Origin: an uncultured bacterium
GTDB taxonomy: Bacteria > Patescibacteriota > Minisyncoccia > UBA6257 > 2-01-FULL-56-20
NCBI GenBank assembly: GCA_963844965.1
Contig: CAWJQC010000001.1
Location: 1 to 48,809 of the forward strand
DNA: 48,809 bases
Reading direction: 5' to 3'
Part shown: one piece after another, positions 20,140 to 48,345 of the stretch
Numbering within the stretch: position 1 is the first letter of the stretch
Layout: the number at the start of each line of letters is the position of its first letter
Notes under the pieces: generated by a model
The model's database searches: none
What the model saw: the letters and a program-made list of their open reading frames with translations, nothing else
What the model was told of the DNA's origin: nothing
Made by a program: the position numbers and the translations under genes

Positions 20140-20198
20140 AAAAATTAAAAATTTCCCACAGCCTTTAATTTTTTGATGTTTAATCTTCAATTTGTTTC

Positions 20199-20840: not shown

Positions 20841-20968
20841 TAATGAAAATTTCTAATTTCTAATATCCAATTTCTAAATAAATTTTAATATCCCAAATCA
20901 CAAAATTTATAATTTTAGCCATTAAGATTTTGATATTGTTTAGAAATTAGGATTTAGAAATTGGAAAT
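20841..20968. repeat. second copy of the AT-rich intergenic palindromic element
   Basis: aatttctaatttctaatatccaatttctaaataaat...ttgtttagaaattaggatttagaaattggaaattt. Confidence 0.5.
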
Positions 20969-21268: not shown

Positions 21269-21337
21269 GTATTGCGAAGTGCAAGGCGCGAATCGCGAAT
21301 CGGCTTGCGCCCAGCAGTCAATAATTTACACACTCAA

Positions 21338-23029: not shown

Positions 23030-23107
23030 AGAAGTTATCAGGGAAACGGAAGAGATATAATATGGTAAAATTAAAAATGAAAGATTAAAAATAAAATTTT
23101 TTAATCT

Positions 23108-24208
23108 TTGGTATTTGATATTTTATTTTTTATCGTGGATAACTACAAAGAAAAACTCAGGGACCTTTTGGTGACGACGGCCAGGCAAAACGCCTCAGAT
23201 TTGCATTTGGCGGTTGGGCGTCGGCCAACGTTGCGTTTGGACGGAGTTCTCGTGCCGTTGCAGAAAGAGCCGATAACGACGCCGGAGGTGGCGGAGGGGC
23301 TGATCGGCGGACTGCTTACGCCGGAGCTTAAGGAAAAATTTCTCCGGGACAAGCAAGTTGACTTCGCTTACGGCCTTGAGGACAAGGCCCGATTTCGTGT
23401 GAATGTCTTTATGCAGAGAGGGTATCTTGCTGCCGCTTTGCGTCTGATTCCCGCAAGGATAAGGACAATTGAAGAACTTGGCTTGCCGCCGATTCTGCAT
23501 GATTTCACGAGATTGTCGCAAGGATTCATTCTGGCCGTGGGTCCCGCTGGACATGGCAAATCGTCAACCCTGGCTGCGATTCTGGATGAAATTAATCACA
23601 CAAGGTCCGACCACATTATCACCATTGAAGACCCGATTGAATATTTATTCACTCAGGACAGGTGCATTGTCTCACAAAGGGAAGTGGGAAACGACACGCC
23701 CACGTTCCACTCCGCCCTGCGCACGGTTTTGCGCCAGGACCCCGACGTAATCATGGTGGGCGAGATGCGCGATGCCGTTTCAATTTCCACGGCGATGACG
23801 GCCGCGGAAACCGGCCACCTCGTCTTTTCAACGCTCCACACCAATTCCGCCGCCCAGACGGTAGATCGCATCATTGATTCTTTCCCTTCCGGCCAGCAGG
23901 GCCAGGTCATATCGCAGCTTGCGGCCACTTTGGTTGCCATTGTTTCCGAGCGGCTTCTGCCGCGTGTTTCCGGCGGACGCGTTCCCGCGATGGAAATCAT
24001 GCTCGTGAACCCGGCGATCAGAAATCTCATACGTGAGAGGAAAATTTACCAGATAGATCTTGTGATTGAAACAAGTATGCAGGAAGGAATGGTGACCCTG
24101 AACCGTTCGCTCGTTAATCTTATAAAGAACAAGGAAGTTTCGCTTGAGAACGCAGAGCTTTACTCGCTGAATCCCGCCGAACTCCGGGTGCTTTTGGAAC
24201 GAATCTAA
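23108..24208 (+). CDS. pilT: twitching-motility ATPase PilT
   Basis: Walker A AVGPAGHGKSSTLAA, DPDVIMVGEMRD, GHLVFSTLHTN; 366 aa. Confidence 0.85.
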   Translation: MVFDILFFIVDNYKEKLRDLLVTTARQNASDLHLAVGRRPTLRLDGVLVPLQKEPITTPEVAEGLIGGLLTPELKEKFLRDKQVDFAYGLEDKARFRVNVFMQRGYLAAALRLIPARIRTIEELGLPPILHDFTRLSQGFILAVGPAGHGKSSTLAAILDEINHTRSDHIITIEDPIEYLFTQDRCIVSQREVGNDTPTFHSALRTVLRQDPDVIMVGEMRDAVSISTAMTAAETGHLVFSTLHTNSAAQTVDRIIDSFPSGQQGQVISQLAATLVAIVSERLLPRVSGGRVPAMEIMLVNPAIRNLIRERKIYQIDLVIETSMQEGMVTLNRSLVNLIKNKEVSLENAELYSLNPAELRVLLERI

Positions 24209-24303
24209 TTACTCAATTATGCGATTAACGAACTGCGGATTGACGGATCGGATTCATTCGTTAATTCGTTGATGCGTTAATCCTTTAATTTCGGATTTAA
24301 ATA

Positions 24304-25524
24304 ATGAAGTTTAAATACCAAGCGAAAACAAAAAGCGGGGAGATGCAGGTTGGCTACGTGGAGGCGGGAAATCGCGACGCCGCAGCGAACATCCTCGCCG
24401 GACACGAGCTTTTCATTCTGAGCTTGGAATCGGCAGAGAAGGGGGGTTTTCTGGAGAACATCACAAGTTATTTTGGCCGCGTGAAGCGGAAGGATATGAT
24501 TATCTTCACGCGGCAGCTTGCAACGCTTCTTGAGGCGCGCCTGCCGCTGAGCACCGCCCTTAAGACCCTTGAGGGCCAGATGAAGCAGTCGGTTTTGAAA
24601 GAAGCGGTAAGACAAATTGGCGAAGACATAGACGCCGGCTTGTCTTTTTCCCAGGCGATGGAGCGCCAAGGCAAGGTTTTCCCGGCGTTTTACATTGAAA
24701 TGGTTAAGGCGGCGGAGGTTACGGGCAACATGAACGAAATTGCCGGCTTTTTGGCGGATTATGCGGAAAGGGAGGGTGAATTACTGAGCAAGGCGGCGTC
24801 GGCGATGATCTACCCGGGGATAGTGGTCGGACTTTTCCTTGTGGTTCTTTTGATCATGGTGGTTTATGTCTTCCCGCAACTTTTGCCGATCTTTCAACAA
24901 TCCAACGTGCAGCTTCCCATATACACGCAAATTCTCCTGGGTTTCGGGACCTTCCTTGCCAAGTGGTGGTTCGCTGTTCTTATAGTTCTGGCTTTTCTCG
25001 CCGCCCTGGTTTTCGATTACGCGCGTACGCCGGAAGGAGAGGCGTTGATCGACGATTTCAAAATAAAACTGCCTCTTTTAAAAAGAGTATTTATGCCGAT
25101 TACTCTGGCGAGGTTTTCCAACGCTGCCGCGCTTTTGATACACGGCGGGATTCCCATCGCCCAGACATTGGAAATTATCGGCCACATGGTGGGAAATGTT
25201 CTCTATAAGGACGTCATGCACGATGTCGCCGCGGATGTCCGCCAGGGCGAGCTTCTCTCGCAAAGCATAGGAAAATACCCGGAATACTTTCCGCCTCTCG
25301 TCACGCAAATGATCTCGGTCGGAGAAACGACCGGAAAGATAGAACAGATTTTCAGCCGCCTGTCGTTGTTCTACAGCCGCGAAGCCGATTCCGTTATGAA
25401 CAATTTGGTTGATTTGATCCAGCCGCTTATGATGGTCGTTATAGGCGTGATGGTGGGCTTTCTCTTTGCCTCAATTTTGATACCGCTTTACAGCCTGACG
25501 GCGAACATGGGAAGCGGCGGGTAA
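24304..25524 (+). CDS. pilC: type IV pilus platform protein PilC (GspF family)
   Basis: 406 aa, two T2SSF repeats, three TM segments. Confidence 0.85.
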   Translation: MKFKYQAKTKSGEMQVGYVEAGNRDAAANILAGHELFILSLESAEKGGFLENITSYFGRVKRKDMIIFTRQLATLLEARLPLSTALKTLEGQMKQSVLKEAVRQIGEDIDAGLSFSQAMERQGKVFPAFYIEMVKAAEVTGNMNEIAGFLADYAEREGELLSKAASAMIYPGIVVGLFLVVLLIMVVYVFPQLLPIFQQSNVQLPIYTQILLGFGTFLAKWWFAVLIVLAFLAALVFDYARTPEGEALIDDFKIKLPLLKRVFMPITLARFSNAAALLIHGGIPIAQTLEIIGHMVGNVLYKDVMHDVAADVRQGELLSQSIGKYPEYFPPLVTQMISVGETTGKIEQIFSRLSLFYSREADSVMNNLVDLIQPLMMVVIGVMVGFLFASILIPLYSLTANMGSGG

Positions 25525-25563
25525 GGCGGGACTCGCGCCGTTTGCGCTCTCAGCGCGTCGATA

Positions 25564-25572
25564 TGGTATAAT
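25564..25572 (+). promoter_or_regulatory. extended -10 promoter TGGTATAAT upstream of the first pilin gene
   Basis: TGnTATAAT read directly. Confidence 0.45.
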
Positions 25573-25650
25573 TTAAGGGTATGATTCAAGTGAAACCGGC
25601 TCACTCTACTCATGGCCGGAGAAAGGTCGGGAATTAAACCGAAAAAACTT

Positions 25651-26154
25651 ATGGCAATGTTAAGAACTAGGAAAGGATTCACTTTGATAGAAATATTGAC
25701 CGTGGTGGCAATTATCGCTATTTTGGCGTCCATCATATTGGTCGGTTTGTCTTCTGCCCGGACATCGGCCCGCGACGCGCGGAGAATCGCCGACTTGGAT
25801 CAGATACGGACGGCGATGGAGCTTTACTTCAATAAGGTGGGTCATTATCCGACCGATTGTTCTGCGGTGAATGCAAATAGCGTCACTTGGTCAACGATCC
25901 AGGGCGACTTGACTGGCGCTGGTATTGGCGTGACCACGGTTGCCGATGATCCGCTGGCTAATCCAGCTAGTCCGCAAACTAGCGTGCATTATGGGTATTC
26001 TCCTACGACAACCGGTGGGTATGATCTTAGTGCGGTACTGGAAGTTTCCGGCAACTCTGCTCTGAACACTTCTATAAAGGGGAATCCCCCCCCGAATGCG
26101 CCGGCTAACTGTAGTCTGAGTTGCAACGGCCAGAATTACTGCATAGGCATGTAG
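25651..26154 (+). CDS. pilA: type IV pilin (probable major pilin), prepilin leader MAMLRTRKG|FTLIE
   Basis: Class III signal peptide, G-1, F+1, E+5, hydrophobic alpha-1 helix TVVAIIAILASIILVGL; own promoter and downstream hairpin. The upstream ATG at 25612 is rejected because an in-frame stop intervenes. Confidence 0.8.
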   Translation: MAMLRTRKGFTLIEILTVVAIIAILASIILVGLSSARTSARDARRIADLDQIRTAMELYFNKVGHYPTDCSAVNANSVTWSTIQGDLTGAGIGVTTVADDPLANPASPQTSVHYGYSPTTTGGYDLSAVLEVSGNSALNTSIKGNPPPNAPANCSLSCNGQNYCIGM

Positions 26155-26207
26155 GAAAAATACGCATCAAGTCCGGTGCGTTTATCCCTGGTTTTTTTGT
26201 GTGTGTT

Positions 26208-26240
26208 CGCCGAACCTCCGATTTTAGCCGGAGGTTCGAT
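26208..26240 (+). terminator. hairpin (CGAACCTCCG-ATTTTAG-CCGGAGGTTCG) after pilin 1, possible terminator or attenuator
   Basis: 10-bp perfect stem read directly; the downstream T-tract is weak. Confidence 0.35.
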
Positions 26241-26293
26241 GTTTTCGGCGGATCATGTTTGACGCGCGCTTGCGGGCAGGTTGAACGGCGGTT

Positions 26294-26302
26294 TGCTATA
26301 AT
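26294..26302 (+). promoter_or_regulatory. extended -10 promoter TGCTATAAT upstream of the second pilin gene
   Basis: TGnTATAAT read directly. Confidence 0.45.
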
Positions 26303-26358
26303 AAAGCATATATCAAGAAAGGTCGAGCTTGGAGTTAGACACACAATCTGCGACACAA

Positions 26359-26838
26359 ATGAAGAAGAACGGTTTCACTCTGATTGAGATGCTTATCGTC
26401 GTTACCATCATCGCGCTTCTTTCGTCTGTCATATTGGTCGGTTTGCAGCCGGCGAGAACCGCCGCGCGCGACGCGAGGCGCATCGTTGACCTGAACGAGG
26501 TCAAAAACGGCTTGGAACTTTATTTCAACAAGTGCGGTTATTATCCGGGCCAAATCCAGCCGGCTTTGAACTGTGGTCCGTTCGTGCAAATTTTCACCTG
26601 GCAGGACCTGACTGCCGCGCTTACGGGAAGCAATCTTGACATTGACGCCATACCGGACGACCCGACAACAGGAGCTGATTATTTATACGCTACAGACACG
26701 AACGGGAAGCATTACATCCTCGGCGCCACGCTTGAGGATCCGAACAATCCGGTGCTTCAGACCAGCATCCACGACGATAAAATTACTTTTTCCGTTCCGT
26801 TCAGCTGTAATGCGCCGGTGTATTGCACGCACCTTTGA
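26359..26838 (+). CDS. type IV pilin 2, leader MKKNG|FTLIEMLIVV. ORF track begins at TTG 26329; ATG 26359 preferred
   Basis: Prepilin cleavage motif, hydrophobic helix, similar N-terminal domain to pilin 1 (ARDARRI..L..ELYFNK). Confidence 0.75.
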   Translation: MKKNGFTLIEMLIVVTIIALLSSVILVGLQPARTAARDARRIVDLNEVKNGLELYFNKCGYYPGQIQPALNCGPFVQIFTWQDLTAALTGSNLDIDAIPDDPTTGADYLYATDTNGKHYILGATLEDPNNPVLQTSIHDDKITFSVPFSCNAPVYCTHL

Positions 26839-26904
26839 GGAGAGTTTTCTCGTTGAAGTTTAGAACTCCGACGTTCGGCATTCTGCGTTCAGGATATTCT
26901 AAAG

Positions 26905-27774
26905 ATGTCCATTTTGCTTTTCATTTTAGGCGCGGCTTTCGGAAGTTTTATCGGTGTCGTAGCTGACAGGTATGAGCCGAATGGTTTTTTGTTCTCAGGA
27001 AAGACCCTGGGCGGCAGGTCGCATTGCAACACCTGCGGCGTTACTTTAAAGTGGTTTGAACTTGTTCCCGTTTTGAGTTTCCTCGCTCAGCGCGGCCGTT
27101 GCCGGAGCTGCGGCGCGAGGCTGGGCCTTAAATATCCCGCCGTGGAGATTTTATCCGGCTTGATTTTCGCGTTCGTTCCGATACGCCTCGCCAGCCAATT
27201 CCAAACTCTGCATCCCGCGTTTTACGTCCTCGCTCCTCTTTGGATCCTTGCCCTTCTTGTTTTGCTCATCATAACGCTCATAGACCTGCGCCTCTATATT
27301 ATTCCCGACGAGGCGAATATTTTACTGGGGATCATCGGTGTTTTGGTCGCGCTCGCGTCACTTCCCGATTTCGGGCCGGTAAGCGGTTCGTTTCTCGGAC
27401 CCTTCGCGTTGTTTTTCGGGTGGCGGAACAATATCTGGACGAATCATCTTTTCGCCGCCGCCTTTGGGGGGATTTTTTTCGCTCTCATAATACTAATAAC
27501 GCGCGGACGGGGAATGGGCATGGGAGATTTGAAATTCGCCGTTCCCTTGGGTTTTCTTTTCGGCTGGCCGGACATGCTTCTCGTGATCGGCATCGGTTTC
27601 ATCGTCGGTTCCGTTTGCGGCGTTTGGCTCATGATCAGGAAGAAAAAGGGGCTGAAGAGCCCGCTGCCTTTCGGTCCGTTTCTGTCTCTTTCCGCCGCCC
27701 TTGTGTTTTTCTTCGGATATCAGATTGTAAATTTGTATTTTGCGCTGTTTTATATCTGGCCGTTCAGGATTTAG
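26905..27774 (+). CDS. pilD: prepilin peptidase PilD (A24 family) with N-terminal CxxC..CxxC zinc domain
   Basis: 289 aa, CNTCGV...CRSCGA tetracysteine, 7-8 TM helices, conserved Asp-containing motifs (ITLIDLRLYIIPDE). Confidence 0.85.
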   Translation: MSILLFILGAAFGSFIGVVADRYEPNGFLFSGKTLGGRSHCNTCGVTLKWFELVPVLSFLAQRGRCRSCGARLGLKYPAVEILSGLIFAFVPIRLASQFQTLHPAFYVLAPLWILALLVLLIITLIDLRLYIIPDEANILLGIIGVLVALASLPDFGPVSGSFLGPFALFFGWRNNIWTNHLFAAAFGGIFFALIILITRGRGMGMGDLKFAVPLGFLFGWPDMLLVIGIGFIVGSVCGVWLMIRKKKGLKSPLPFGPFLSLSAALVFFFGYQIVNLYFALFYIWPFRI

Positions 27775-27783
27775 AATATATAT

Positions 27784-28449
27784 ATGCCCAAGAGGAGAAC
27801 TTCCGGACCTATCTCTGCGCCGGAACAAGAAGTCCGCGGCTTACGGCGCTCAAGGCGCGCCTCTCATTCGGCGCGGGGGTTTACTCTCATTGAACTTTTG
27901 GTTGTCATCGCCGTGACCGTTCTCCTCTCAACCTATATCATCAGCTATCAGAGGACGGGCCAGCGGCAGATTCTTCTCTACGTTGAGAGTCAAAAGATAG
28001 CGAGTTTGATCTTGAAGGCGAAATCGTTGGCGATAGAATCGTTCGTTGACGTGAGTCAGGGCAATTGCGGTTATGGCTTGAGGGTGGATTACAGCGGAAA
28101 AAGTTACGGCATATTTTACTACGCGACTTCCACCACCGACAATGAGTCAAAGTATATCCAATGCCAAGAAATCAAAAGGAGCGGCAGCTTGGCGCCGGGC
28201 CGCATAGTCCCTTTCTCGGATACGACACAGCTTAATTCCGAACTTGTTTTTTGGACACCCCCGCCCGGGAACGCCACGCCGCCACTTTACTACGTTCTTT
28301 TCGTACCGCCGGATCCCGAAACACTGCTTGTCGACCAGAGTGGTGACATAGTTTCAGGTCCAGGTTCCGAGGCCGTCTATCTTGAAACCAAGGACGGTCT
28401 GGCGAGTACCACGGTCGTCGTTAATCCAGCCGGTCAGGTGAATTTCTAA
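27784..28449 (+). CDS. minor pilin / pseudopilin with long N-terminal leader (..ARG|FTLIELLVVIAV)
   Basis: Prepilin-type N-terminal cleavage/methylation motif at residues about 30-45. Confidence 0.65.
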   Translation: MPKRRTSGPISAPEQEVRGLRRSRRASHSARGFTLIELLVVIAVTVLLSTYIISYQRTGQRQILLYVESQKIASLILKAKSLAIESFVDVSQGNCGYGLRVDYSGKSYGIFYYATSTTDNESKYIQCQEIKRSGSLAPGRIVPFSDTTQLNSELVFWTPPPGNATPPLYYVLFVPPDPETLLVDQSGDIVSGPGSEAVYLETKDGLASTTVVVNPAGQVNF

Positions 28450-28560
28450 ATTCAGAAAGTGGAAAATAGTAAATAGAAAATAGAAAAATCAATGCCAGCT
28501 TTAAATAGGATGAGAAGTAAAAGAAAAAAATCACCACCCTCTACTTTCTACTTTCTCCGG
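28441..28560. repeat. AT-rich palindromic intergenic element related to 8925-9040 (AAATAGAAAATAGAAAA ... CTCTACTTTCTACTTTCTCC)
   Basis: Shared TAGAAAGT/ACTTTCTA and ATAGAAAATAGAA motifs. Confidence 0.4.
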
Positions 28561-28639
28561 TGGCCGAGCACAAGGGGCAGACCCCGTATGACAACTGCGG
28601 TAGCGGCAACTCAATGCCGCAAGGAAATTAAGAAGTAAT

Positions 28640-29230
28640 ATGTTTATGCGGCATATTTTTCGCACAGTAGCAGATTTCTTGCGTTGCCGTAGGCATTGCA
28701 ACCGCAGTTGCTCTACGGGGCAGATTATAATTGAGGCCATAGTCGCTTTATCGGCTCTGACCATCTGCTTCGTGGGGATTTTTGGGCTTATTTCAACTTC
28801 GCTCCACTACAACCGTTTCATTGCCAACGACTACACGGGCACCTACCTCGCGGCCGAGGGAATAGAGGTGGTCAAGAACCTTTTGGATTCCAATGTCATA
28901 TCCGGACGCGAGTGGGGCTGCGGATTTATGAACGGCTCTTATGAGTTGACTTATGATACGCAGTTCAAAAGTACGGTTTGTTCGCAATCCGTACTTGATC
29001 CCAATCAATCTAGAAGTTTATACATGGATTCAGGTAGCCACTTATACAACTACAATGTCGCCGCGGCCGGCACCGCTTTTACGCGCGTCGTGACGATCGA
29101 GGTTCTCGAAAGTGACTCGAACGGGAATCCTCAGGAAATGCAGGTCAATTCCGTTGTTTCCTGGAATCAGGGGGCGGGCAAGCAAAGCGTCAATTTGGAA
29201 GACAGATTTTTCAATTGGCACGCGCAGTAA
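28640..29230 (+). CDS. pilin-like protein (..STG|QIIIEAIVALSALTICFVGIFGLIS), Cys-containing C-terminal domain
   Basis: Gly followed by hydrophobic helix with Glu at +5; four Cys in the globular part. Confidence 0.5.
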   Translation: MFMRHIFRTVADFLRCRRHCNRSCSTGQIIIEAIVALSALTICFVGIFGLISTSLHYNRFIANDYTGTYLAAEGIEVVKNLLDSNVISGREWGCGFMNGSYELTYDTQFKSTVCSQSVLDPNQSRSLYMDSGSHLYNYNVAAAGTAFTRVVTIEVLESDSNGNPQEMQVNSVVSWNQGAGKQSVNLEDRFFNWHAQ

Positions 29231-29241
29231 ATAAATAAAAA

Positions 29242-29841
29242 ATGAAAAATCAAAAATCAAAATTGAATTCCGGATTTGCCCCCACGCCAGAACGAGAAGC
29301 TCGAGATTCAAGGCGCTCCGCGCATACTTCTCGTTTGGTGTGGGGGTTTACCATGATCGAGCTTTTGGTCGCCATCGCCCTTTTTTCCATCGTTGTGAGT
29401 ATCGCCGTCGGCGGACTCGTGAACGCGATACGGATTCAGCGGCAGATCGCGGCTTTGATCGCGGCGAACAGCAACGCGAGTTTCGCTCTGGAGCAAATAG
29501 CGCGCGACGTAAGGACCGGGTCGGACTTCAGCGGCGCAAACTGCTCCGGGCAGCAATGCTCAGAACTTGATTTTATGAACGCTTTCGGGCAGGCGACAAG
29601 CTACCGGCTGAGGAGCGGCAAGATTGAGAAAGGAACTAACGGCGCATTCCAGCCGGTCACCGGTGACAACACTGCCGTGCAATATCTCTCGTTCACGCTC
29701 ATTGGCAATCTTCCCGGGGACGGTTATCCTCCGCGGATCATTATAACTCTCGGGGTTAGTCCGTCCTCGGCCGCCGGCGGCGCGAGCGGCATTATTTCCG
29801 GGATTGAGACAACGGTGAGCGCACGGCAGCTGGATACGTGA
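29242..29841 (+). CDS. pseudopilin (PilW/GspJ-like), leader ..VWG|FTMIELLVAIALFSIVV
   Basis: Prepilin-type N-terminal motif. Confidence 0.65.
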   Translation: MKNQKSKLNSGFAPTPEREARDSRRSAHTSRLVWGFTMIELLVAIALFSIVVSIAVGGLVNAIRIQRQIAALIAANSNASFALEQIARDVRTGSDFSGANCSGQQCSELDFMNAFGQATSYRLRSGKIEKGTNGAFQPVTGDNTAVQYLSFTLIGNLPGDGYPPRIIITLGVSPSSAAGGASGIISGIETTVSARQLDT

Positions 29842-29990: not shown

Positions 29991-32385
29991 GTGAAACATA
30001 GAAATGTATGTGGCGCTATTGCCGTTTTTGTGTTGCTTATGACGGGTTGCGGTAGTGAAGGTGGTAATAATCTTCCGCCAGCAAATCCGTTGCCGACAAT
30101 TTCCGTTTCCGCGAATTCGGTTGGCTTTTCCGCCGTTCAGGGCGGAGCAAATCCCGCGGACCAGGAGTTGGCCATTTCTAACTCCGGCGCTTCGGGCTCC
30201 ACGCTGAGCTATTCTGTGTCCAAGACGCAGAATTGGCTTACGCTCGGCGGTTCTGCGAGCGGCAGTTCTTGCCTCCGGCGGGTCCGCGAGCGTTTCGCTG
30301 GACGTGAATATTTCCGGCCTCACGGTCGGAACCTACAACGATACATTGACGATTTCCGCTGCCGGCGCGACGAACACGCCGCAGACGGCCGCGGTAAAAC
30401 TTGTCGTAACACCGCCCACGATTGATTCAGTCACCATTTCGCCGACGAGCGTAACGCTTCCGGCTGGCGGCACGCAGCAGTTCACGGATAACGTCAAAGG
30501 AACCGGTAGTTTCAATCCTGCCGTGAATTGGACAACGTCTGCGGCCTGCGGCAAGATTTCGGATTCCGGCCTCTACACGGCCGCAATGAACGCCCAGGTA
30601 TGCGCGGTGACCGTTACCAGTCAAGCCGACAATACGAAATCGGCTTCGGCTATGGTGACGATAACTTCGCTGCCCCCGACCATATCGGTCGCGCCAGGCA
30701 CGTTCACATTCTCGTCCGTCCAGGGCGGAGCGAACCCTGCGAGCCAGACGCTTACCGTATCAAATTCCGGAGCCTCCGGTTCGGTTCTGACTTACTCGGT
30801 TTCTAAAACGCAGCCATGGCTTATACTCGGCGGCTCTGCGAGCGGCAGTCTTGCCGCCAGCGGGTCCGCGAACGTTTCGCTGGATGTGAATATTTCCGGC
30901 CTTACAGCCGGAACTTACACCGATACACTGACAATTTCCGCTGCCGGCGCGACGAACACGCCGCAAATCGTGACGGTAACGCTCACTATAGCCGTGCCGC
31001 CTGATCCGACGATTTCAATGCCGCCTACCGCGACGGTGCAATACGGTTCAACCTGGCAATTCGATATCACAGCCAACGGCACCCCGGCCTGTTCCGTAAC
31101 TTCTGGTCCCGGCTCGGTGTCGGTATCTGCGGACGGCACTGTTGCGACATATAGTGTGCCTTTGCCGGGCACGGCTGTGGCCGCGATCTCGGCTTGGTCG
31201 GCGGCGCTCATCTGCACCGTGACGAATTCTGTCGGCAAGACCGCGACCGCGACAGCAACCGTTGCGCTCCAATATGACACGCCGGTTATCTCCTCATTTT
31301 CCACGGTCGGCATTATGTGTCAGGCGGAGTGTCTGATAACCGTGGTCGTAACCGGCTCCGGATTCTACGTCGGCGGCACGCTTTACGAGGATTCAACGCC
31401 CATGTCGCTTGTGAGCGCGAGCACGAACGTAACCGGCCAACCCAACATGCTTCCGATATCGGAGAACGACAGGGTCGCATTCATAATGATTTTTGACACG
31501 CCGCATTACGACCCACACCGGATAAAGTTTTCGGCCGCGAGTCCTAACGACGGGCACGGCGGCGGAACTTCAAATACCGTTTATCTGGGATTCTACGGCA
31601 ACCAGAATACGGTAGCTTTAAGCATTGGCAACCAGAACACGACAGCTCCCACCCCGGCGGAAGTTTTCCAAGCCTATCAGGCTCAATCGGTAATCTACAA
31701 ATTTCTCCTAAGTGATGGAACAAGCGACGGTAATTTCCTACAAGCTGCTCACGGAATATCGGTGGACGACAAAAGCGGAAATCTATTGCTTACCCCGCCG
31801 TGGGGCATAATGGAAATAGCACCCAGCGGGCAGCAAGTCGGCGGGGCGTGGATAAATCTCTATTCCATAGCCGTGGCGGCGAAAGGCGGGTATGGATGCG
31901 CAGCGCAGCCATATGACGGTTCGCTGACCTCACTTGATCTGTCGCAGTTGCCGCGTTTGAGTCCCGTTATCATGGCTATCGGAAACGAGCCGTGGAATGT
32001 GGCGATGACGAAACTCGGCGGCGAGTTTGCCTGCGTCGCGTTCAATGCCGGCGACTTGCAGCTCTCCGTCGTTAAAGTTCCAGAAACGCAACTTTGGAAT
32101 TTCACGACGCTTGTCGGTTTGACGCCGCTCGGTGATCTGCAGTCGCCTCCGGACGGCGGTTGGCAACTCGCTGTTTTTGACGTCAGCACGACCGTCAAGA
32201 TTATCGCCGTCCTGTCACAGCACGACAAGTTGGTTGTCTTCAAGCAGTTGCAGTTGGACGAAAATACCGGACTTGTCGCGATTAACGATCTTGCTCAAAC
32301 CCCGATCAGCTGGGTTATAAATTCGGATCAGCAGCTAACTGGCGCGCCGGTATTGCTCGGGATTCCGTTCAGGATCGCGTTTTGA
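29991..32385 (+). CDS. lipoprotein with BACON-like / Big_2 / BACON-like N-terminal modules and large C-terminal domain; interrupted by a 1-nt insertion at about 30266 (ORFs 29991..30425 and 30304..32385 are one gene)
   Basis: Lipobox LLMTGC; GTG start with GGGAGG RBS; the second tandem module (30700-31000) is a near-identical DNA copy of the first but has GGCAGTCTTGCC where the first has GGCAGTTCTTGCC. Confidence 0.55.
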
Positions 32386-32609
32386 TCCCGAACGGGATGC
32401 TAATCGTGGCGGTTGATGACTATCTGGCCGGTGTCACAAGGTTTGGCTCCGTTAATCCCACGACCGGAGTTATGACACAACTCACGGCGACGACCCCGAA
32501 ATTGACGGTAGGATTAGCGGTAAGTCCGCTTGACGGCCGTATCATCGGCTGCGAGCGCGACGCCTGCGACTTCATGCTGGAGCAGTGATGTTGAGATGCG
32601 ATTTTTCGC

Positions 32610-32642
32610 GGCCCCGGGTGCGCTTACCGGGGCCTTTTATAT
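32610..32642 (+). terminator. rho-independent terminator (GGCCCCGGG..CCGGGGCC followed by TTTTATATTTTTAT)
   Basis: Read directly. Confidence 0.55.
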
Positions 32643-32655
32643 TTTTATCATACCG

Positions 32656-33020
32656 TTTTGCCCGGTAGTAGACCGAGTGCAGCAACGCCCCGTCACCAAA
32701 CAAGCACCTCGTTTTTCCCAGCGACTTTGCATATACCGTGCTTTTCGTTCCCAGTATATGACTTGTAGATACCGACGTTTATCCAAGAAAAACGGTCGGT
32801 CGCTGCAGTACTTGTTTGGTGCGGGGCAACGCATGTACGCTTTCCCGCCACAAACGATTACCTTTGGTAAATTGATGGTTTTGAGTGACAGTTTTCCCAA
32901 AATCAGGCGTTGTGGAAAGCGTAGCGCTTGGCTCACTACCGGGTTTGCCCGGTAGTGAAATTGCGAGTGGTCGCCGAAGGCGACGTAAACAAAATGCTCG
33001 CAATTCTACTACCGGGTTTG
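32656..33020. repeat. nested inverted-repeat element: GTTTTGCCCGGTAGTAGAC (32656) ... CTACCGGGTTTGCCCGGTAG (32936, palindromic) ... TCTACTACCGGGTTTG (33005); highly hairpin-rich interior; MITE-like or structured RNA
   Basis: Three copies of the ACCGGGTTTG / CAAACCCGGT core read directly; internal long imperfect IR 32691-32716 / 32808-32832. Confidence 0.45.
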
Positions 33021-33027
33021 TTATAAT
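33019..33027 (+). promoter_or_regulatory. extended -10 TGTTATAAT only 8 nt upstream of ATG 33036 (leaderless mRNA predicted)
   Basis: Read directly. Confidence 0.45.
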
Positions 33028-33035
33028 TTAATCAA

Positions 33036-33518
33036 ATGGCGAAGCTTTCAAAGTCAACGGGAGTTTTCGCGCTCGTGATACTGCTTTTGGCCGCGGTCAT
33101 TGCCGTCATCGTTTTCGTCGCGCTTCGCGGGAAGGCGCCAGCTCCCGCCGCTATGCCCGTAGGGAAACCCACTGCGCAGCCTTTGCCTGCATACGCGCCG
33201 CCGGGCGAGCTCACACCCGGTTTTCCCAAAGAACTGATTCTCGGCGGCGAGGCGACGTCCAGCGGAAGTTATGCGATAAATTACGGCAGCGGCCCGAGTT
33301 TGCGCACAGCATCGTTCGGTTCGGCGAAGTCAATGCTTTCGCTTTTCAATCTCTACAAAACGTACTTCAGGAGCAACGGCTGGACCGTGGTCAACGAAAT
33401 TACCAAATACCAGAATTCGCGCGGTCTTTATGCAGTGAAAAGCGGCGCCGTTTCCAGCGTTTCTATTATTGATAACGGAAAAACGCGCGAGGTCGTCGTG
33501 AGCTATTCGGGGAAATGA
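33036..33518 (+). CDS. secreted/anchored hypothetical protein
   Basis: Signal anchor VFALVILLLAAVIAVIVFVAL; 160 aa. Confidence 0.5.
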   Translation: MAKLSKSTGVFALVILLLAAVIAVIVFVALRGKAPAPAAMPVGKPTAQPLPAYAPPGELTPGFPKELILGGEATSSGSYAINYGSGPSLRTASFGSAKSMLSLFNLYKTYFRSNGWTVVNEITKYQNSRGLYAVKSGAVSSVSIIDNGKTREVVVSYSGK

Positions 33519-34390
33519 AAGTTTTTAAAAAAATAATTCTTTACACAGCGCTGCTCGCTTTTGCTGTCAGCGTTGTTTTCAATGTTCCGCGGGAGTTTTC
33601 TCATGCTCAAACATCGCCACAGGTGCGTGTCGTATTCGGCCGTGTTGACCAGTATGGCAACATCCTTGGCGGGAGCCATCTTCCTAAAACTCCTTCAAAA
33701 TACGATTTTTCCGTTAGTCATGGGTCGACCGGTAGTTATTCAATCAGTTTTGACAGCAGCGATTTTTCCAATACTCCCGCCCTTGTGGTTAATCCAGCGA
33801 GCGCCAGCCACCCGGCGGATATTGATTCCGTGGGAAGATTTTCGGCATTTTTTCACATAGGAAGAGTCGGCGCTGGCAATCAGGACGATTATTTCTCGTT
33901 TATTGCCGTGGGTCTTTCGTCTAACCCGAGGAACGACCTTGCGTACGCATTCGGCAGCTTCATGAGCTCCTATGGGGTGGGGGCGTCTAACGCAGGAAGC
34001 GGAAATTGGACTTCATCACCTGGCACTGGCAGCTACAGCGTCTCCTTCAAAGCTGGCGTATTTAGTTCTCCGCCCACGGTGGTGGCAATGGGTCCGGGTG
34101 CTGTTGATTGTGTCTCGGGGGTTTCCCAGAGTCCAACCTTGGCGTATCTTTACGAGGAAAGTGGAAACTGTGAAACTGGTGTTCCGAGAACTGATTATAC
34201 TGGACAAGGTATGTCGTTTATCGCGGTCGGGGAAAACGCGGCGCAACCCGACCTCGTGAACATTTCGGAAGGAACTTTTGGTTATGATGGGACTATTGGC
34301 GCCGGCAGTACCGGCGACCTTCAATATGTTTATGGCAGTTTAGCGGCAATAATAGTCTGTATTTTCTTATCACCAACATGGCGTTTGTGA
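33515..34390 (+). CDS. secreted hypothetical protein
   Basis: Signal peptide IILYTALLAFAVSVVFNV; 291 aa; 4-nt overlap with upstream gene. Confidence 0.5.
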   Translation: MKVFKKIILYTALLAFAVSVVFNVPREFSHAQTSPQVRVVFGRVDQYGNILGGSHLPKTPSKYDFSVSHGSTGSYSISFDSSDFSNTPALVVNPASASHPADIDSVGRFSAFFHIGRVGAGNQDDYFSFIAVGLSSNPRNDLAYAFGSFMSSYGVGASNAGSGNWTSSPGTGSYSVSFKAGVFSSPPTVVAMGPGAVDCVSGVSQSPTLAYLYEESGNCETGVPRTDYTGQGMSFIAVGENAAQPDLVNISEGTFGYDGTIGAGSTGDLQYVYGSLAAIIVCIFLSPTWRL

Positions 34391-35115
34391 ATAATTCGCC
34401 GGTGTTGGTGGGAACTCCAATTTATGTTAACGGGCGCGTCTGCGGGGGCTATACCTACACGAGCGGGGGCGGCGGGTCAGCTACTATCGCCGGTGATCCA
34501 GATCATACATGCGACACCAGAAGCGGATCAACCAAGGCGGGACTCACGATGATTGCCATCGCGCCCGTACTTCCTACTGTTAATATTTATCCCGATGCCG
34601 CTTCCGTTCCTTTGAATAAGGCCACGAATATCCATTGGAGTTCCGAATATACCACCGATTGCTCAATAACGATCATGGCCAACGGCGTGACCACGCCGAG
34701 CGGCTGGACAGTAAACCCGAACGTTGATGGTTCTCACACGACCGGAAATTTAACTTGGCCAACGACTTATACAATAAACTGCGACGGCAGTTTCGGCGGC
34801 AAAGTGACCATGTCGGCCACCGTGAGTATTGACCCGCCAGATATGAACCTGCAAGCCAATCCCACTTCTATTGATGTGTGTGCTTCTCCGATCATTGCCT
34901 GCGGCGGTGATCCCAACACTTGCGGACGCTCAGTTGTAAGTTGGGGTCCGATTATAAATGTCACAAGTTCCAGTAATTGTAAACTTTCCGGAAATTGGTC
35001 CGGTACGTTGTCGTCGCCCGATATTTCACTTTCACCAGGCGGTGTTCTGTCTCCGTCATATTACCCTTCCGGTATCTCTCAGCTTGACGGGTGTTACCTC
35101 AACAAGAACGTATAA
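34378..35115 (+). CDS. Cys-containing Ig-like repeat protein; probably the N-terminal part of the giant gene below (frame switch needed near 35050-35115)
   Basis: Contains the same TYTINC..G..G..TV.V domain signature as the downstream gene; the domain continues across the stop codon in another frame. Confidence 0.45.
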   Translation: MAFVNNSPVLVGTPIYVNGRVCGGYTYTSGGGGSATIAGDPDHTCDTRSGSTKAGLTMIAIAPVLPTVNIYPDAASVPLNKATNIHWSSEYTTDCSITIMANGVTTPSGWTVNPNVDGSHTTGNLTWPTTYTINCDGSFGGKVTMSATVSIDPPDMNLQANPTSIDVCASPIIACGGDPNTCGRSVVSWGPIINVTSSSNCKLSGNWSGTLSSPDISLSPGGVLSPSYYPSGISQLDGCYLNKNV

Positions 35116-38100
35116 TATGACCTGCTACGGCCCTGGCGGGAGTTTTTCCGAAACTGCCACCGTGACCATTAATCCCGCGACAGTGGGGCTTACTCCCAAC
35201 CCTGGGTCCGTTGATTTGTATAAAACATCCGTAATAAATTGGGGCATAACTAACGTTACGACTCTTAACTCCTGTGCTCTAGGGGACGCTTGGGGAAGCA
35301 GTTCTCCTCCGCCTCTTCACCCATCGTCTTGCTCCGGTAATTATACGACTCCGTCATTGGTTGCGCCCACGACCTATTCCATCGGGAGCTGCACCGGGCC
35401 TGGAGGAAAACAGAATCCCGATCCCGAATCTGTGACGGTCGGCATAAATGACCCGAATATAAACATGGCTGCTGTTCCGGCCCAGCTCCACCTTAGTGAG
35501 TTAAGCGGCGGCTCGGTTATAAAATGGGGCAGGGACGCGGTTGGCACAAATAGTCCCAGTGATGACATCGGTAATGTCACAAGCACGGCTAATTGCACGC
35601 TTTCCGCCATTCCGCCTGCGAGCGGCTGGTCCGGCACGCTCTCGGCTTTCCACGGCACCTACGCGACGGGACCGCTATCATCAAGCAATCTTACATACAC
35701 ATATAATATAACCTGCAAGGGAGCGGGACAGAACGGGGGAACTACCACCGGGAAAGCTATAGTGTCCGTCGCTCCGCCCGAAGTTTCCATCAATGCGAGT
35801 TCTACTACGATCAGTCCCGGTTCTTCCACGGTAATAACTTGGAACTCTACGGATACCACCGCCTGCGTGGAGTCGTGGGTGAACAGCACGACAGGTAATC
35901 CTAACTGGGCCAACAGTCTGTCTAACAGCGTAGGGACAAACACCGGCCCTCTCACGGACAACACGACGTATTCAATAAGTTGCACTGGCGCCGCCGGCGC
36001 AACCGCGCAAGATTCCGTTACGGTGAGCATGAATACCGGCGCGCCGACCATTACTGAATTCAAGGCCACGCCGCCCGCCGTGTCGCCCGGCGACTCCACC
36101 ACAATAACCTGGAGTTCCACCAACGCCACCAATTGCAATGTGTCGTCCACCACAGACGGCGTAAACTGGACGGCCGTTGGGAGCGGTACCTCCAACACCA
36201 CAGGGGTTTCAAGCGGCCCGCTTACGAAAGATACGACTTATGAAATCACTTGTCACGGTCCCGGCGGAGATACACAGCGGTCAATCACGGTCAGGGTTGG
36301 GAATTTCATATGCCCGGATATGGGTGCGATCAACGTAAGTTCCACGAATTCCTGGGCGGACAATGACCATCCGAACAATTTATTGCCCGGTGATTACGTT
36401 ACAAGTTCGTGGCAATTTACGCCTCCCTCATCGGTTGACCCCTGCGATCAGGGTTGCGCGAATTTGTCCCATAACGGATACACGAATCTTCCGGCGAGCG
36501 CGGCGGCTCCGGCAGATTGCCCGTATACACTTATCCCCGTTCAGGGCAGCGCCGGACCGCTCTATGCCTTGAAAAAAGTTGATACGAAACTTGCCGCCAT
36601 AGGAGAAGGCGATCTTGGCTTGAGCTGGCTCAAGAACTCGTTGCTCAATATTGCCAAAGCATTTGTTGTTTGGCCGGGCACATCCACTTCTTCTTACACC
36701 CAGGGTCTCAGTCCGTCCGCTTATTACGATGACTGGCTTGTTTTCTCGGATCCCGCCAAAACCAACTCCAGCCACATCAACTTCAGTGTGGGCACTGGTT
36801 CTTCTACCGCTCTTACGATCAACGGCACCACGATTGGCAGTTTCACCGTCGGCCAGAAATGGACGCTGGACATAACAAGCAACATGCCGAAAACAAATTT
36901 CAGTTTCTGCGTCAACTCTAACTCCAGCTGTAACCCCTATACCACGGATGCGAACGGCAACTGGACCCTAAGCGGCGATTTTCCGCTTTCCACTGTCGGT
37001 TCCTGGAGCGAGTGGGCGGTGTTCCCGGGCGGCGTCAATTCCGATACCATCAGTTTCACCGTGGGCGCCGCTCCCTTTGCCGCTCTTATGGTCAATACCA
37101 CAACTATCAACGCCTTTGGTTTCGGCCAGACCATAACCTACGCGCTCGCCTCAAACATTCCTAAGACGAGCTTTGAAGTGTGCTATAAGCTTGATGGCGT
37201 GGCGCAGCCGTGCGTCAACTCAAGTTTTACGGACCCGAATTATCAGACGGACCCGAGCGGCAATTGGAGCACGCAGCAGACGCAAGACTTATCTACTACT
37301 GGTGCCGCCGGCCATTCTTACGAGGACTGGTTTGTCTTCCGGGATTCCGACCAGACCAATTCCAGCCACGTCAATTTCATCGTGAGCCCCGGCACTCTCG
37401 CGATCAACGGCGTTACTGCTGGTAGTTTTACGGTGGGCCAAGCATGGACACTGAACGTAACGAGCAGTATGCCGAACACTAGTTTCACCATTGAATGCAG
37501 CATGGATAGCGGTGCGCCATTTGCCTGCGATAGCGGCACCACTGACCCGAACGGCAACTGGACCACTCTAGGCGGCGATACCTTTCCCGCTTCCGTCGCT
37601 GGTTCTTGGGAAGAGTGGGTAGTCTTCTCAAACGGCGCCAGCTCTACCCATATTAACTTCAAAGTGAGCCAGGGTCCTACCGCTGCTCTCACGATCAACG
37701 GCGTTACGACCGGCAGTTTTACCGTCGGCCAGAAATGGACGCTGAACATAGCAAGCAATATGCCGAGCACCAATTTCAGCTTCTGCGTCAACTCCGGTTC
37801 TAACTGCAGACCATACACCACTGACCCGAACGGTAACTGGAGTCTGAGCGGCACTTTCAATTCCGATTCCATCGGTTCCTGGAGCGAGTGGGCGGTGTTC
37901 CCGGGTGGCCCCAATTCCAATTCTATCAGTTTTACTGTGGGCGCCGCTCCATTTGCCGCTCTCACGATTAACGGCGCTACGTCTGGTAATTTCGGCGCAA
38001 ACCAGGCGTGGATTCTGAACATAGCAAGCAATATGCCGAGCACCAATTTCAGCTTCTGCGTCAACTCCGGTTCTAACTGCAGACCATACACCACTGACCC

Positions 38101-39430
38101 GAACGGCAACTGGAGTCTGAGCGGCACTTTCAATTCCGATTCCATCGGTTCCTGGAGCGAGTGGGCAATATTCTCAAATTCCGCCCAAACCTATTCCAAT
38201 CTCATCAATTTCAGCGTGGCCTCTATTTCCCCGGCCACTCTCACGATCAACGGCGCCGCTGCCGGCACTTCCGGCGTCGGCCAGACCGTAACATACACGC
38301 TTGTTTCGGGTGTACCCAGCGCGAGCTTTAAAGTGTGCTATGACTACAATGGCGTAACGCAGCCCTGTTTGACCGATCCAAAATATTTCACAGATGCATA
38401 CGGTAATTGGAGTACGAAGCAAACTTTAACCCCCAATACTGCCGGCTCGGCCGCTCTTTTCAATATTGAATGGGACCCGCTCGCGGAGATAACTGTGACC
38501 TCTACTTCGCCGATTCCTCCGCCTTCCTGTCCGGACGGTCAGATTTGCTTTAACGAGACAAGTACGGCGGAAGGAACGGTCGCGGTATCAAATAATGGTG
38601 CCGACCATTCGCAACTTGATTGGTCCGTAAGCGACCAATCTTCCGCCAATTTCCCCAGTTGGCTTACGGTTTCGCCGTTGTCTTCCACCTCCACTGGCTC
38701 CACCGGACCGATTAACAAGGATGGCCAGCCGCAGACCGTGAATGTTGATTGTGATACCAGTTCCGTTCCGTTCGGTACACAAACTTCAACTGTGCTCGTT
38801 TTCTCGGGTATGACGCACGGTATTCCTGGCCAACAAGCCGCCGATTCTCCCCGAACCGTCACCGTTAACCTTTCTCTTGCGATACCTCCTGTTACGATAA
38901 ATCCGGCTAACGCGACTACCACCGTTTATACACCCGTCGCATTCACGGTCGCCGGGGGCATGGGCACCTCGTATTCCTGTTCCGTTTCCGGTCCGGCGTA
39001 CGTGAGCTGCGCGGTCCTCGGCGAAAACATTCCTTTCAATATCAGTTTCCCGGCTGTTGGAACTTATACCATCACGGTTACCGATACCGACCCCACGAAC
39101 ACGACGGGCGACAATACTGCTACCGCTTCCGTTGTTGTTGCGGTGGTGCCCGCGAGTTGCGATTTCTCCGCATCGGCTGGCGGCTTATCAACCAACTGCA
39201 TTCTCTTATCGGCATCCACGACCCTCTCCTGGTCGTGCGAGTATGTTGATCCCGTCAAGGGTTGCACGCTTAACGGCTCGGCCGTTGCATCTAGCGGGAG
39301 CCGTATAGTATTCCCGACGTCCACGACGGTTTACACGCTCCATTGCGCCGGAGCAGGAGGCGGCCAGGACGCGATAGTTCCACTGCAGGTTTGCGTGAGA
39401 ACGCAGAGTTGGAAAGAAATTCCGCCATAA
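34958..39430 (+). CDS. giant secreted adhesin-like protein built from about 100-aa Ig-like repeats (TY.I.C.G.GG....TV.V; ..NC.VS.) and a second repeat family (..ING.T.G.F.VGQ.WTL....MP.T.F.....S..C.PYTTD.NGNW..SG.F....GSWSEW.VF). Start uncertain: ATG 35117, or fused with 34378..35115
   Basis: Repeats read in translation; near-identical DNA tandem copies 37737-37900 / 38017-38180. Confidence 0.6.
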   Translation: MSQVPVIVNFPEIGPVRCRRPIFHFHQAVFCLRHITLPVSLSLTGVTSTRTYNMTCYGPGGSFSETATVTINPATVGLTPNPGSVDLYKTSVINWGITNVTTLNSCALGDAWGSSSPPPLHPSSCSGNYTTPSLVAPTTYSIGSCTGPGGKQNPDPESVTVGINDPNINMAAVPAQLHLSELSGGSVIKWGRDAVGTNSPSDDIGNVTSTANCTLSAIPPASGWSGTLSAFHGTYATGPLSSSNLTYTYNITCKGAGQNGGTTTGKAIVSVAPPEVSINASSTTISPGSSTVITWNSTDTTACVESWVNSTTGNPNWANSLSNSVGTNTGPLTDNTTYSISCTGAAGATAQDSVTVSMNTGAPTITEFKATPPAVSPGDSTTITWSSTNATNCNVSSTTDGVNWTAVGSGTSNTTGVSSGPLTKDTTYEITCHGPGGDTQRSITVRVGNFICPDMGAINVSSTNSWADNDHPNNLLPGDYVTSSWQFTPPSSVDPCDQGCANLSHNGYTNLPASAAAPADCPYTLIPVQGSAGPLYALKKVDTKLAAIGEGDLGLSWLKNSLLNIAKAFVVWPGTSTSSYTQGLSPSAYYDDWLVFSDPAKTNSSHINFSVGTGSSTALTINGTTIGSFTVGQKWTLDITSNMPKTNFSFCVNSNSSCNPYTTDANGNWTLSGDFPLSTVGSWSEWAVFPGGVNSDTISFTVGAAPFAALMVNTTTINAFGFGQTITYALASNIPKTSFEVCYKLDGVAQPCVNSSFTDPNYQTDPSGNWSTQQTQDLSTTGAAGHSYEDWFVFRDSDQTNSSHVNFIVSPGTLAINGVTAGSFTVGQAWTLNVTSSMPNTSFTIECSMDSGAPFACDSGTTDPNGNWTTLGGDTFPASVAGSWEEWVVFSNGASSTHINFKVSQGPTAALTINGVTTGSFTVGQKWTLNIASNMPSTNFSFCVNSGSNCRPYTTDPNGNWSLSGTFNSDSIGSWSEWAVFPGGPNSNSISFTVGAAPFAALTINGATSGNFGANQAWILNIASNMPSTNFSFCVNSGSNCRPYTTDPNGNWSLSGTFNSDSIGSWSEWAIFSNSAQTYSNLINFSVASISPATLTINGAAAGTSGVGQTVTYTLVSGVPSASFKVCYDYNGVTQPCLTDPKYFTDAYGNWSTKQTLTPNTAGSAALFNIEWDPLAEITVTSTSPIPPPSCPDGQICFNETSTAEGTVAVSNNGADHSQLDWSVSDQSSANFPSWLTVSPLSSTSTGSTGPINKDGQPQTVNVDCDTSSVPFGTQTSTVLVFSGMTHGIPGQQAADSPRTVTVNLSLAIPPVTINPANATTTVYTPVAFTVAGGMGTSYSCSVSGPAYVSCAVLGENIPFNISFPAVGTYTITVTDTDPTNTTGDNTATASVVVAVVPASCDFSASAGGLSTNCILLSASTTLSWSCEYVDPVKGCTLNGSAVASSGSRIVFPTSTTVYTLHCAGAGGGQDAIVPLQVCVRTQSWKEIPP

Positions 39431-39486
39431 TATTGGAATTTAAATTTAGAATAAAGGACAGTAGAATTTGGGACTTGTGATTTGCA

Positions 39487-39522
39487 AAGAACTGCGCACA
39501 CAGGGCGCGCGGTTCTTTCTTC
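39487..39522 (+). terminator. terminator hairpin after the giant gene (GAACTGCGC..GCGCGGTTC followed by TTTCTTC)
   Basis: Read directly; one mismatch in stem. Confidence 0.4.
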
Positions 39523-39528
39523 TAAATT

Positions 39529-39537
39529 GTTATAATT
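39529..39537 (+). promoter_or_regulatory. extended -10 TGTTATAAT 6 nt upstream of ATG 39543 (leaderless)
   Basis: Same motif and geometry as at 33019. Confidence 0.4.
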
Positions 39538-39542
39538 AGTAC

Positions 39543-42997
<3,455 letters not shown>

Positions 42998-45890: not shown

Positions 45891-45937
45891 GCCACCCCGC
45901 ACCAAGCCCGACTCGTTTTACATAAGGCAGAATCAAA

Positions 45938-45965
45938 CCCCCACCTTTTCGGAAAAAGGTGGGGG
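45938..45965. repeat. 28-bp perfect palindrome CCCCCACCTTTTCGGAAAAAGGTGGGGG between convergent genes
   Basis: Read directly; family recurs at 47423-47596 and 48272-48345. Confidence 0.7.
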
Positions 45966-47422: not shown

Positions 47423-47596
47423 GTCAACCCCCACCTTTTCGGGAAAAAGACGGGGGTCAACCCCCGCCTTTTCGGAAAAAGACGGGGGTCAACCCCCGCC
47501 TTTTCGGAAAAAGATGGGGGTCAACCCCCGCCTTTTCGGAAAAAGATGGGGGATTGACCCGCCTTTTCGCGCATCGCGCAAAAGGCGGGGGTTGAC
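47423..47596. repeat. tandem array of about 4.5 copies of a 31-32-bp unit (GTCAACCCCCGCCTTTTCGGAAAAAGACGGGG), each a pair of small hairpins; terminal variant with CGCGCATCGCGC loop; no spacers
   Basis: Read directly; ORFs 47291..47609 are translations of the repeat. Confidence 0.75.
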
Positions 47597-48271: not shown

Positions 48272-48345
48272 GACCCCCACCTTTTCGGAAAAAGGTGGGG
48301 GTGAACCCCCACCTTTTCGCGCATCGCCCAAAAGGTGGGGGTTGT
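48272..48345. repeat. two further palindromes of the GGGGG/CCCCC family (CCCCCACCTTTTCGGAAAAAGGTGGGGG and CCCCCACCTTTTCGCGCATCGCCCAAAAGGTGGGGG)
   Basis: Read directly, immediately 3' of the second hicA. Confidence 0.7.

Follow-up and report, generated by a model that had tools for sequence, protein, structure and literature searches.

The DNA analysed here, which we call the window, is a 48,809-nt stretch of contig CAWJQC010000001.1 (assembly GCA_963844965.1) from an uncultured bacterium, and our subject is a set of forward-strand open reading frames (ORFs) within it that appear to encode a single large protein built from immunoglobulin (Ig)-like modules. Three ORFs follow one another at this locus. 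The first (33515..34390; public call P0004) encodes 291 aa and carries a Sec-type signal peptide. ORF1 (34378..35115, frame 1; 245 aa, public gene call P0005) encodes module A (34567-34839) of a repeat family that we call family 1 and the first two-thirds of the next family 1 module, module B (34858-35088). ORF2, in frame 2, spans 34958..39430 in its longest form (1490 aa) and is called publicly as P0006 at 35117..39430 (1437 aa), a product that begins with MTCYGPGG in the middle of a domain. ORF1 and the long form of ORF2 had been described in a first-pass annotation of this DNA, and both are present as given there. Over the 4.3 kb of ORF2 there are 0 in-frame stops where shuffling predicts 53, and the other two frames contain 55-61. 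The public coding sequences of 291, 245 and 1437 aa are each singletons among ~15 billion proteins.

ORF1 and ORF2 read as one gene, because a single Ig-like domain, module B, is divided between their two frames. A hidden Markov model (HMM) of family 1 made without module B matched frame 1 at model positions 2-62 (4.1 bits, a weak score) and frame 2 at model positions 59-87 (17.6 bits). A wider HMM assigned 34858-35088 to frame 1 and 35075-35179 to frame 2, and a codon-usage frame plot switched from frame 1 to frame 2 at ~35080. Both approaches locate the break on the + strand at 35075..35090, within GGTATCTCTCAGCTTGACGG and beside a (TC)3 run, where the sequence has one base in excess or is two short. 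The motif TYNMTC is encoded in frame 2 at 35108-35125, and the frame-1 stop, TAA at 35113-35115, falls inside its codons, ~10 codons beyond the shift zone. The first-pass annotation had noticed that a TYN.TC motif spans the end of ORF1 and had proposed that the two ORFs were probably one gene; the match of the sister-module profile to module B across both frames supports that proposal. Gene callers yield pieces of 245 and 1437 aa because of the +1 frame break inside module B.

That the 291-, 245- and 1437-aa ORFs are truly separate genes, as they are publicly annotated, we regard as very unlikely. Gene callers do return three coding sequences, each with an ATG, and the spacing of two of these starts resembles translational coupling: ATG 35117 sits 1 nt past the TAA, and the ATG at 34378 opens an overlap of 13 nt that ends with the upstream stop. 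However, the 1437-aa product would then start two-thirds of the way through an Ig-like domain, the earlier part of which would end the 245-aa product, and the conserved cysteine pair of that domain would be divided between the two. Moreover, neither of these products has a signal peptide though both are made of disulfide-type extracellular modules, and no Shine-Dalgarno sequence precedes either start, although few occur anywhere in this genome. An alternative genetic code that reads UGA as sense was also ruled out: TAA, not UGA, is the stop at 35113, and table 11 leaves all conserved genes intact.

Of the explanations for the break, the one to which we give least credence is a programmed +1 ribosomal frameshift, slippage or a phase-variation switch that controls production of the full-length protein. 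Breaks in the window are limited to surface-protein genes by the pilus locus, where contingency switching would be sensible, and one TC unit added to the (TC)3 at the break would, by our reading, restore the frame as ...GISLSLTGVTS.... Inspection of 35060-35120 nevertheless revealed none of the elements of a prfB-type +1 frameshift (a slippery codon followed by a stop or rare codon, and an upstream Shine-Dalgarno-like stimulator): a prfB-like CUU-UGA site is absent, the A site holds neither a rare nor a stop codon, and the frame-1 stop comes 10 codons on. No X XXY YYZ heptamer is present. Tandem Repeats Finder reported no simple-sequence tract within the gene; the runs at the breaks (TT, CC and (TC)3) are only 2-3 units long, and no homopolymer is long enough to act as a switch. 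Finally, the three well-supported breaks of the neighbourhood, two of which lie in the upstream gene described below, differ in sequence context and run in opposite directions.

The true start of the protein may lie further upstream. The 291-aa ORF has a signal peptide at aa 1-32 (33515-33610 on the + strand; MKVFKKIILYTALLAFAVSVVFNVPREFSHA followed by Q at the cleavage site, by inspection) and two diverged repeats of ~100 aa, R1 and R2 (33623-33922 and 33935-34240, +; z = 6.9 against shuffles), and it matched nothing in Pfam, NCBIfam or the PDB. By inspection, neither ORF1 (MAFVNNSPVLVG...) nor ORF2 (MTCYGPGG... or MSQVPVIV...) has a signal peptide. Coding potential passes from the frame of the 291-aa ORF to that of ORF1 with no gap, and frame 1 has no stop in the 29 codons before ATG 34378. 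The switch in coding potential from frame 2 to frame 1 at 34336..34390 (+) could mark a further frame break or an ordinary gene overlap of 13 nt. Since the 291-aa ORF alone provides a signal peptide and coding potential is gapless, it is plausible that this ORF is fused as the N terminus of a protein totalling ~1,970 aa, in which case a second break would lie near 34340. The length of about 1,680 aa proposed in the first-pass annotation holds for ORF1 and ORF2 joined but is probably incomplete, given that the signal peptide sits on the abutting 291-aa ORF. Sec export of the large protein would follow if the three ORFs formed one gene, and not otherwise. We also considered a third N-terminal repeat that would bridge the 291-aa ORF (33515..34390) and ORF1; it was convincing by eye and was rejected on scores of 0.7 bits (HMM) and z ~1 (Smith-Waterman).

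The protein consists of about 15 Ig-like modules, of which seven belong to family 1, six and a half to a second family, family 2, and one is BACON-like; the two repeat families named in the first-pass annotation were recovered by this module analysis. Family 1 modules are ~90 aa long, with a tryptophan, a conserved cysteine pair and a TTYxItC-GxGG motif, and six lie on the N-terminal side and one at the C terminus. Modules C to F (35171-35455, 35447-35779, 35771-36040 and 36041-36307, +) scored 50-82 bits by hmmsearch, and the C-terminal module G (39146-39400, +) scored 58.9 bits. The family 1 profile had weak matches to titin Ig and KIAA0319L PKD domains. A cysteine-rich linker (36308..36676, +), with no Pfam and no significant PDB match, leads into the family 2 array (36677..38524, +), which comprises a partial unit, U0, and the units U1 (36809-37081), U2 (37082-37393), U3 (37394-37684), U4 (37685-37957), U5 (37958-38236) and U6 (38237-38524). 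The array is followed by the BACON-like domain (38567..38890, +). Pfam has no direct match to this domain, which is 32% identical (pairwise E = 7e-8) to a domain of the upstream gene that itself scores 24.7 bits against Pfam BACON_2, for which the cut-off is 25. The protein ends in LQVCVRTQSWKEIPP and a stop (...SWKEIPP).

Neither family matched a Pfam or NCBIfam model. At E <= 0.01, Pfam gave no match to ORF1, ORF2 or the C-terminal 301 aa, with Ig-like, PKD, fn3, He_PIG, CARDB and DUF11 models included; NCBIfam gave none to ORF1 or ORF2; and PDB sequence searches of the N-terminal ORF, linker and C-terminal region returned nothing significant. Family 2 modules are 91-104 aa long with two conserved cysteines and have no sequence match in Pfam, NCBIfam or the PDB. 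Their structure model is a confident 8-strand beta-sandwich, a two-sheet fold that superposes on known domains of the Ig, FN3 and macroglobulin (MG) class. An exhaustive profile search of 1.84 billion representative proteins found 120 relatives of family 2 at E <= 1e-3 (59 at E <= 1e-10), in contrast to a profile search of a word-indexed database, which found nothing. The domain is un-annotated in these relatives too, where it stands beside DUF11, He_PIG together with polysaccharide deacetylase, GH17 and metallopeptidase domains, partners that point to extracellular proteins.

Within the family 2 array, two neighbouring units share a nearly identical tract. Self-BLASTN and repeat searches showed a 273-nt periodicity across ~36700-38500, to which Tandem Repeats Finder, which reported nothing in the array, is blind because the units are too diverged overall. 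The copy in U4 (37742..37893, +) and the copy in U5 (38015..38166, +) are the same at 151 of 152 nt and lie exactly 273 nt apart, not ~280 nt; their one mismatch is a synonymous T/C difference at 37834, and exact identity extends over at most 92 nt. We estimate the chance of 151/152 matches at roughly 1e-29 (binomial, at a background identity of ~62%). The remainder of the two units is much less alike: U4 and U5 are 68% identical in the N-terminal segment (N; nt 1-57), 99% in the middle segment (M; nt 58-209) and 56% in the C-terminal segment (C; nt 210-273), with a synonymous divergence (dS) of 0.71 in N and 0.07 in M. U1 and U4 have the reverse profile, with identities of 88% (N), 74% (M) and 86% (C) and dS values of 0.35, 1.13 and 0.38, respectively.

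This mosaic of identity with sharp edges, together with the contrast in dS inside and beside the tract, identifies the 152-nt identity as a probable short gene-conversion tract between adjacent old units. Conversion probably ran from U5 to U4, because the middle segment of U4 departs from its U1-like ancestry. A recent duplication of the whole unit was ruled out, as the rest of the two 273-nt units is merely 56-68% identical. The near-identical copies of about 150 bp had been reported in the first-pass annotation and are real at the corrected coordinates above. It had read them as ongoing duplication or gene conversion, of which conversion is supported and fresh duplication is not. It had also listed older copies of about 75% identity: that at 36830-37020 lies in U1 and is 74% identical to the block, but 37300-37380, in the tail of U2, corresponds to another part of the unit and is 76% identical to the U0 tail (36722-36796) and 75% identical to a stretch of the next gene (40557-40631), so that this item of the list holds only loosely. 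The overall dN/dS between U1 and U4 is 0.23, and this value and the 0 stops against ~53 expected indicate that the frame was under selection until very recently.

An assembly artefact could also make two units identical, through a collapsed or chimeric repeat or a consensus of mis-mapped reads. Short-read graphs and polishing can be misled by runs of 92 and 59 identical nt that recur 273 nt apart, and the frame breaks are other signs of imperfect consensus in the region. Yet the tract is codon-phased and frame-keeping with one synonymous difference, both copies sit in unique flanks within read-pair length, and the U1-U4 dS profile separately flags the same segment as foreign to U4. We consider such an artefact unlikely and gene conversion the better account.

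The genes on either side have modules in common with this one: BACON-like domains occur upstream, and family 2 occurs in a Laminin_G_3 gene downstream. The upstream gene (29991..32588) is of lipoprotein type, with Big_2 and two BACON_2-like domains and a propeller-like C-terminal half, and carries two single-base breaks. The break in module B is therefore one of several in this neighbourhood, which alters how it should be interpreted. At ~30266, the first BACON-like copy carries one T more than its in-frame paralogue (GGCAGTTCTTGCC against GGCAGTCTTGCC), and the spacing between the paralogues changes from 583 to 582 exactly at 30266/30267. Near 32340, one base has been lost in GGCGCGCCGG, shifting frame 1 to frame 0, and the restored reading is ...TGAPGIARDSVQDRVLIPNG.... 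The corrected gene ends at the frame-0 stop 32586-32588, followed by a GC hairpin and U-run (32610-32645). Downstream, the Laminin_G_3 gene (ORF 39543..40700) has one family 2 domain at 40350-40643 (90 bits), the tail of which shares 75% DNA identity with the U2 tail (37316-37390). At the start of the longest Laminin_G_3 ORF, a tandem repeat of the heptamer ATCCTAA (39549-39583; 5 copies, 78% matches) was observed, and the real start of this gene is more likely the ATG at ~39598.

Whether the indels arose in cells, as a recent loss of function or strain variant, or in the assembly only is a matter of about even odds. The reading in which the breaks at ~35080 and in the upstream gene are sequencing, assembly or polishing errors, so that the gene is intact and expressed in the cell, falls slightly short of an even chance in our judgement. 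Every break is a single-base indel at a short run: GTTCTT replaces GTCTT relative to the in-frame paralogous copy, with the spacing going from 583 to 582; a base is lost in GCGCCGG; and the third break lies beside (TC)3. The genes are otherwise fully open and under purifying selection. Residual errors of polished long-read assemblies gather in paralogous and repetitive DNA, and the broken genes are the repeat-rich genes of the window. Housekeeping genes are split in the same way on an unrelated public contig that carries a family 2 relative (ENA ERZ25039480 contig_64104), where a pseudouridine synthase, a class II tRNA synthetase and MreB (595-3501) are each in two calls; such splits are typical of uncorrected long-read indels, artefacts that are common in metagenome-assembled genomes (MAGs). 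Against errors of this kind, ~25 kb of conserved genes in the window are intact (PilM/O/B/T/C/D, pilins, LigA, a 1528-aa NHL protein, an ABC transporter and a sigma factor), the break near 32340 lies outside any repeat, and by our calculation 3-4 random indels would all fall inside 9.4 kb with p ~0.005-0.02.

Comparison with relatives did not bring an intact copy to light. The full-length reconstructed query gave three weak matches only, all at domain level, and a junction-spanning query had no match in genome or metagenome contig collections. A tblastn search of 80 LigA-syntenic Patescibacteria loci found scattered family 1 module matches and no syntenic homologue. None of these searches returned an orthologue.

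LigA in the window is at most 72% identical to that of Patescibacteria MAGs of the Paceibacteria/Parcubacteria type, which marks the host as a Paceibacteria-type Patescibacterium of the candidate phyla radiation. A complete and intact type IV pilus cluster occupies 18377-29841, with PilM, a PilN-like ORF, PilO, PilB, PilT, PilC, PilD and five pilin-like genes, and the modular gene lies ~3.7 kb downstream of the last of these pilin-like genes. Between the upstream block and this gene are the terminator hairpin (32610-32645) and ~450 nt of non-coding DNA, and the gene appears to be a transcription unit separate from the pilus cluster. A gene for a 160-aa membrane-anchored protein (33036..33518) precedes the 291-aa ORF in the same apparent transcription unit, the end of which is likely the hairpin and T-rich run after the stop (39483..39520, +; a terminator-like match at 39493-39509 in the scan). 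As a whole, the promoter and terminator scan found no excess of sites over shuffles. Few genes of the window have a Shine-Dalgarno sequence. The motif TTGTTATAAT, which resembles an extended -10 element, was seen at 33013-33036 and 39527-39545, 8-12 nt before the starts at 33036 and 39543, a placement that suggests short-leader or leaderless transcripts.

Two further repeats were observed elsewhere in the window. In the pilus cluster, a 62-nt AT-rich repeat is present at 19522-19583 and 20921-20982 (81% identical, both copies ending at ATGGC), upstream, respectively, of the gene at 19579 and of an apparently uncalled small ORF that starts at ~20977 (coding potential 21001-21181), and may be a common regulatory leader. 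At 47429-47552, tandem 32-nt palindromic units (CCCCCGCCTTTTCGGAAAAAGACGGGGGTCAA) form GC-clamped hairpins, with related copies at 45906-45965 and 48274-48344, and look like repetitive extragenic palindromic (REP) or miniature inverted-repeat transposable element (MITE)-like elements.

Taken as a whole, the locus of this Paceibacteria-type Patescibacterium would encode a single large, modular extracellular protein. Its gene is interrupted in the assembled sequence by a +1 frame break in module B, with the 291-aa ORF plausibly supplying the real N terminus. Recombination between neighbouring units would have copied the 152-nt tract between U4 and U5, units that are otherwise under purifying selection. 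The product may serve an episymbiotic cell alongside its type IV pili as an adhesin or a glycan-binding spacer array, and its most likely role, judging by its architecture, disulfide-type cysteines and pilus-adjacent context, is that of a cell-surface or secreted binding protein. Cultivated Saccharibacteria depend on type IV pili and several adhesins for epibiotic growth (PMC10633639), and it is on this basis that we propose binding to a host or substrate. We assign this overall reading, of a frame-broken and gene-converted modular protein with a putative surface or secreted binding role, a probability of about 0.7. Several points weigh against it. The frame-1 half of module B is weak against the sister-module HMM (4.1 bits), the structure model of module B is of low confidence, and no collection searched holds an orthologue, hence no intact version of the gene for comparison. 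Homology does not support fusion with the 291-aa ORF, and in two coupled genes an overlap of 13 nt with an ATG start would be equally normal. By inspection, the C terminus has no LPXTG or other sorting motif, hydrophobic tail or transmembrane segment, and no binding function is evident in the protein. Real breaks would mean that this strain does not make the protein. A more far-reaching version, in which real breaks are confined to surface genes by the pilus locus through repeated switch-off or loss under host or phage pressure, and in which family 2 is an undescribed module that binds host glycans and is shuffled and converted among these genes to vary specificity, strikes us as improbable.

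The closest known systems include the tandem bacterial Ig-like adhesins (invasin/intimin Big_1, Leptospira Lig Big_2 and SiiE/BapA-type BIg) and the macroglobulin domains of complement C3/C4/C5, CD109 and alpha-2-macroglobulins. Unlike those adhesins, the present protein matches no Pfam Big_x, PKD, fn3, He_PIG or CARDB model and has no beta-barrel, LysM, type I secretion system or LPXTG element; its binding is only putative, and in a Patescibacterium host an outer-membrane anchor is not expected. In Gram-positive surface proteins with homogenized repeats (alpha C/Rib, Esp and SasG/Aap), intragenic recombination keeps repeat DNA identical and permits copy number to change. The family 2 array resembles these proteins in having identical DNA stretches in tandem units through intragenic recombination, but here one 152-nt tract has been homogenized between two units and the other units are 40-88% identical, which argues for sporadic conversion and not for concerted evolution of the whole array. 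What the gene shares with type IV pilus-associated adhesins (PilY1/PilC class) and the Saccharibacteria adhesins required for epibiosis is its setting, as it follows a complete type IV pilus cluster with five pilin-like genes; cultivated Patescibacteria rely on surface proteins and such pili to attach to their hosts. In contrast to the PilY1/PilC class it apparently has its own transcription unit and no PilY1 domain (the C-terminal beta-propeller, Pfam Neisseria_PilC, PF05567, had no match in ORF1, ORF2 or neighbouring genes), and it has no sequence relation to the Saccharibacteria adhesins (PMC10633639). Its BACON-like domain, and the family 2 relatives that stand beside GH17, polysaccharide deacetylase and metallopeptidase domains, recall the accessory modules of secreted glycan-active enzymes, although there is no catalytic domain here and the BACON label rests on a paralogue just under the Pfam cut-off.

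No new mechanism is involved: surface proteins with tandem Ig-like domains are familiar, as are conversion within a gene and the occurrence of frame-broken genes in MAGs. The gene, 5-6 kb long, encodes a lineage-specific, ordinary and poorly catalogued modular Ig-like surface protein, the second domain family of which is uncatalogued. For annotation, this means that three public coding sequences misrepresent a surface protein of at least 1,680 aa, perhaps 1,970, and that the neighbouring gene is split likewise. Family 2, a confidently foldable domain of ~93 aa found in ~120 representative proteins and lacking a Pfam or NCBIfam model, is worth describing. As a lineage-specific multi-Ig protein encoded beside a pilus locus, the product may reasonably be considered a candidate for attachment to hosts by an uncultivated lineage of Paceibacteria type.

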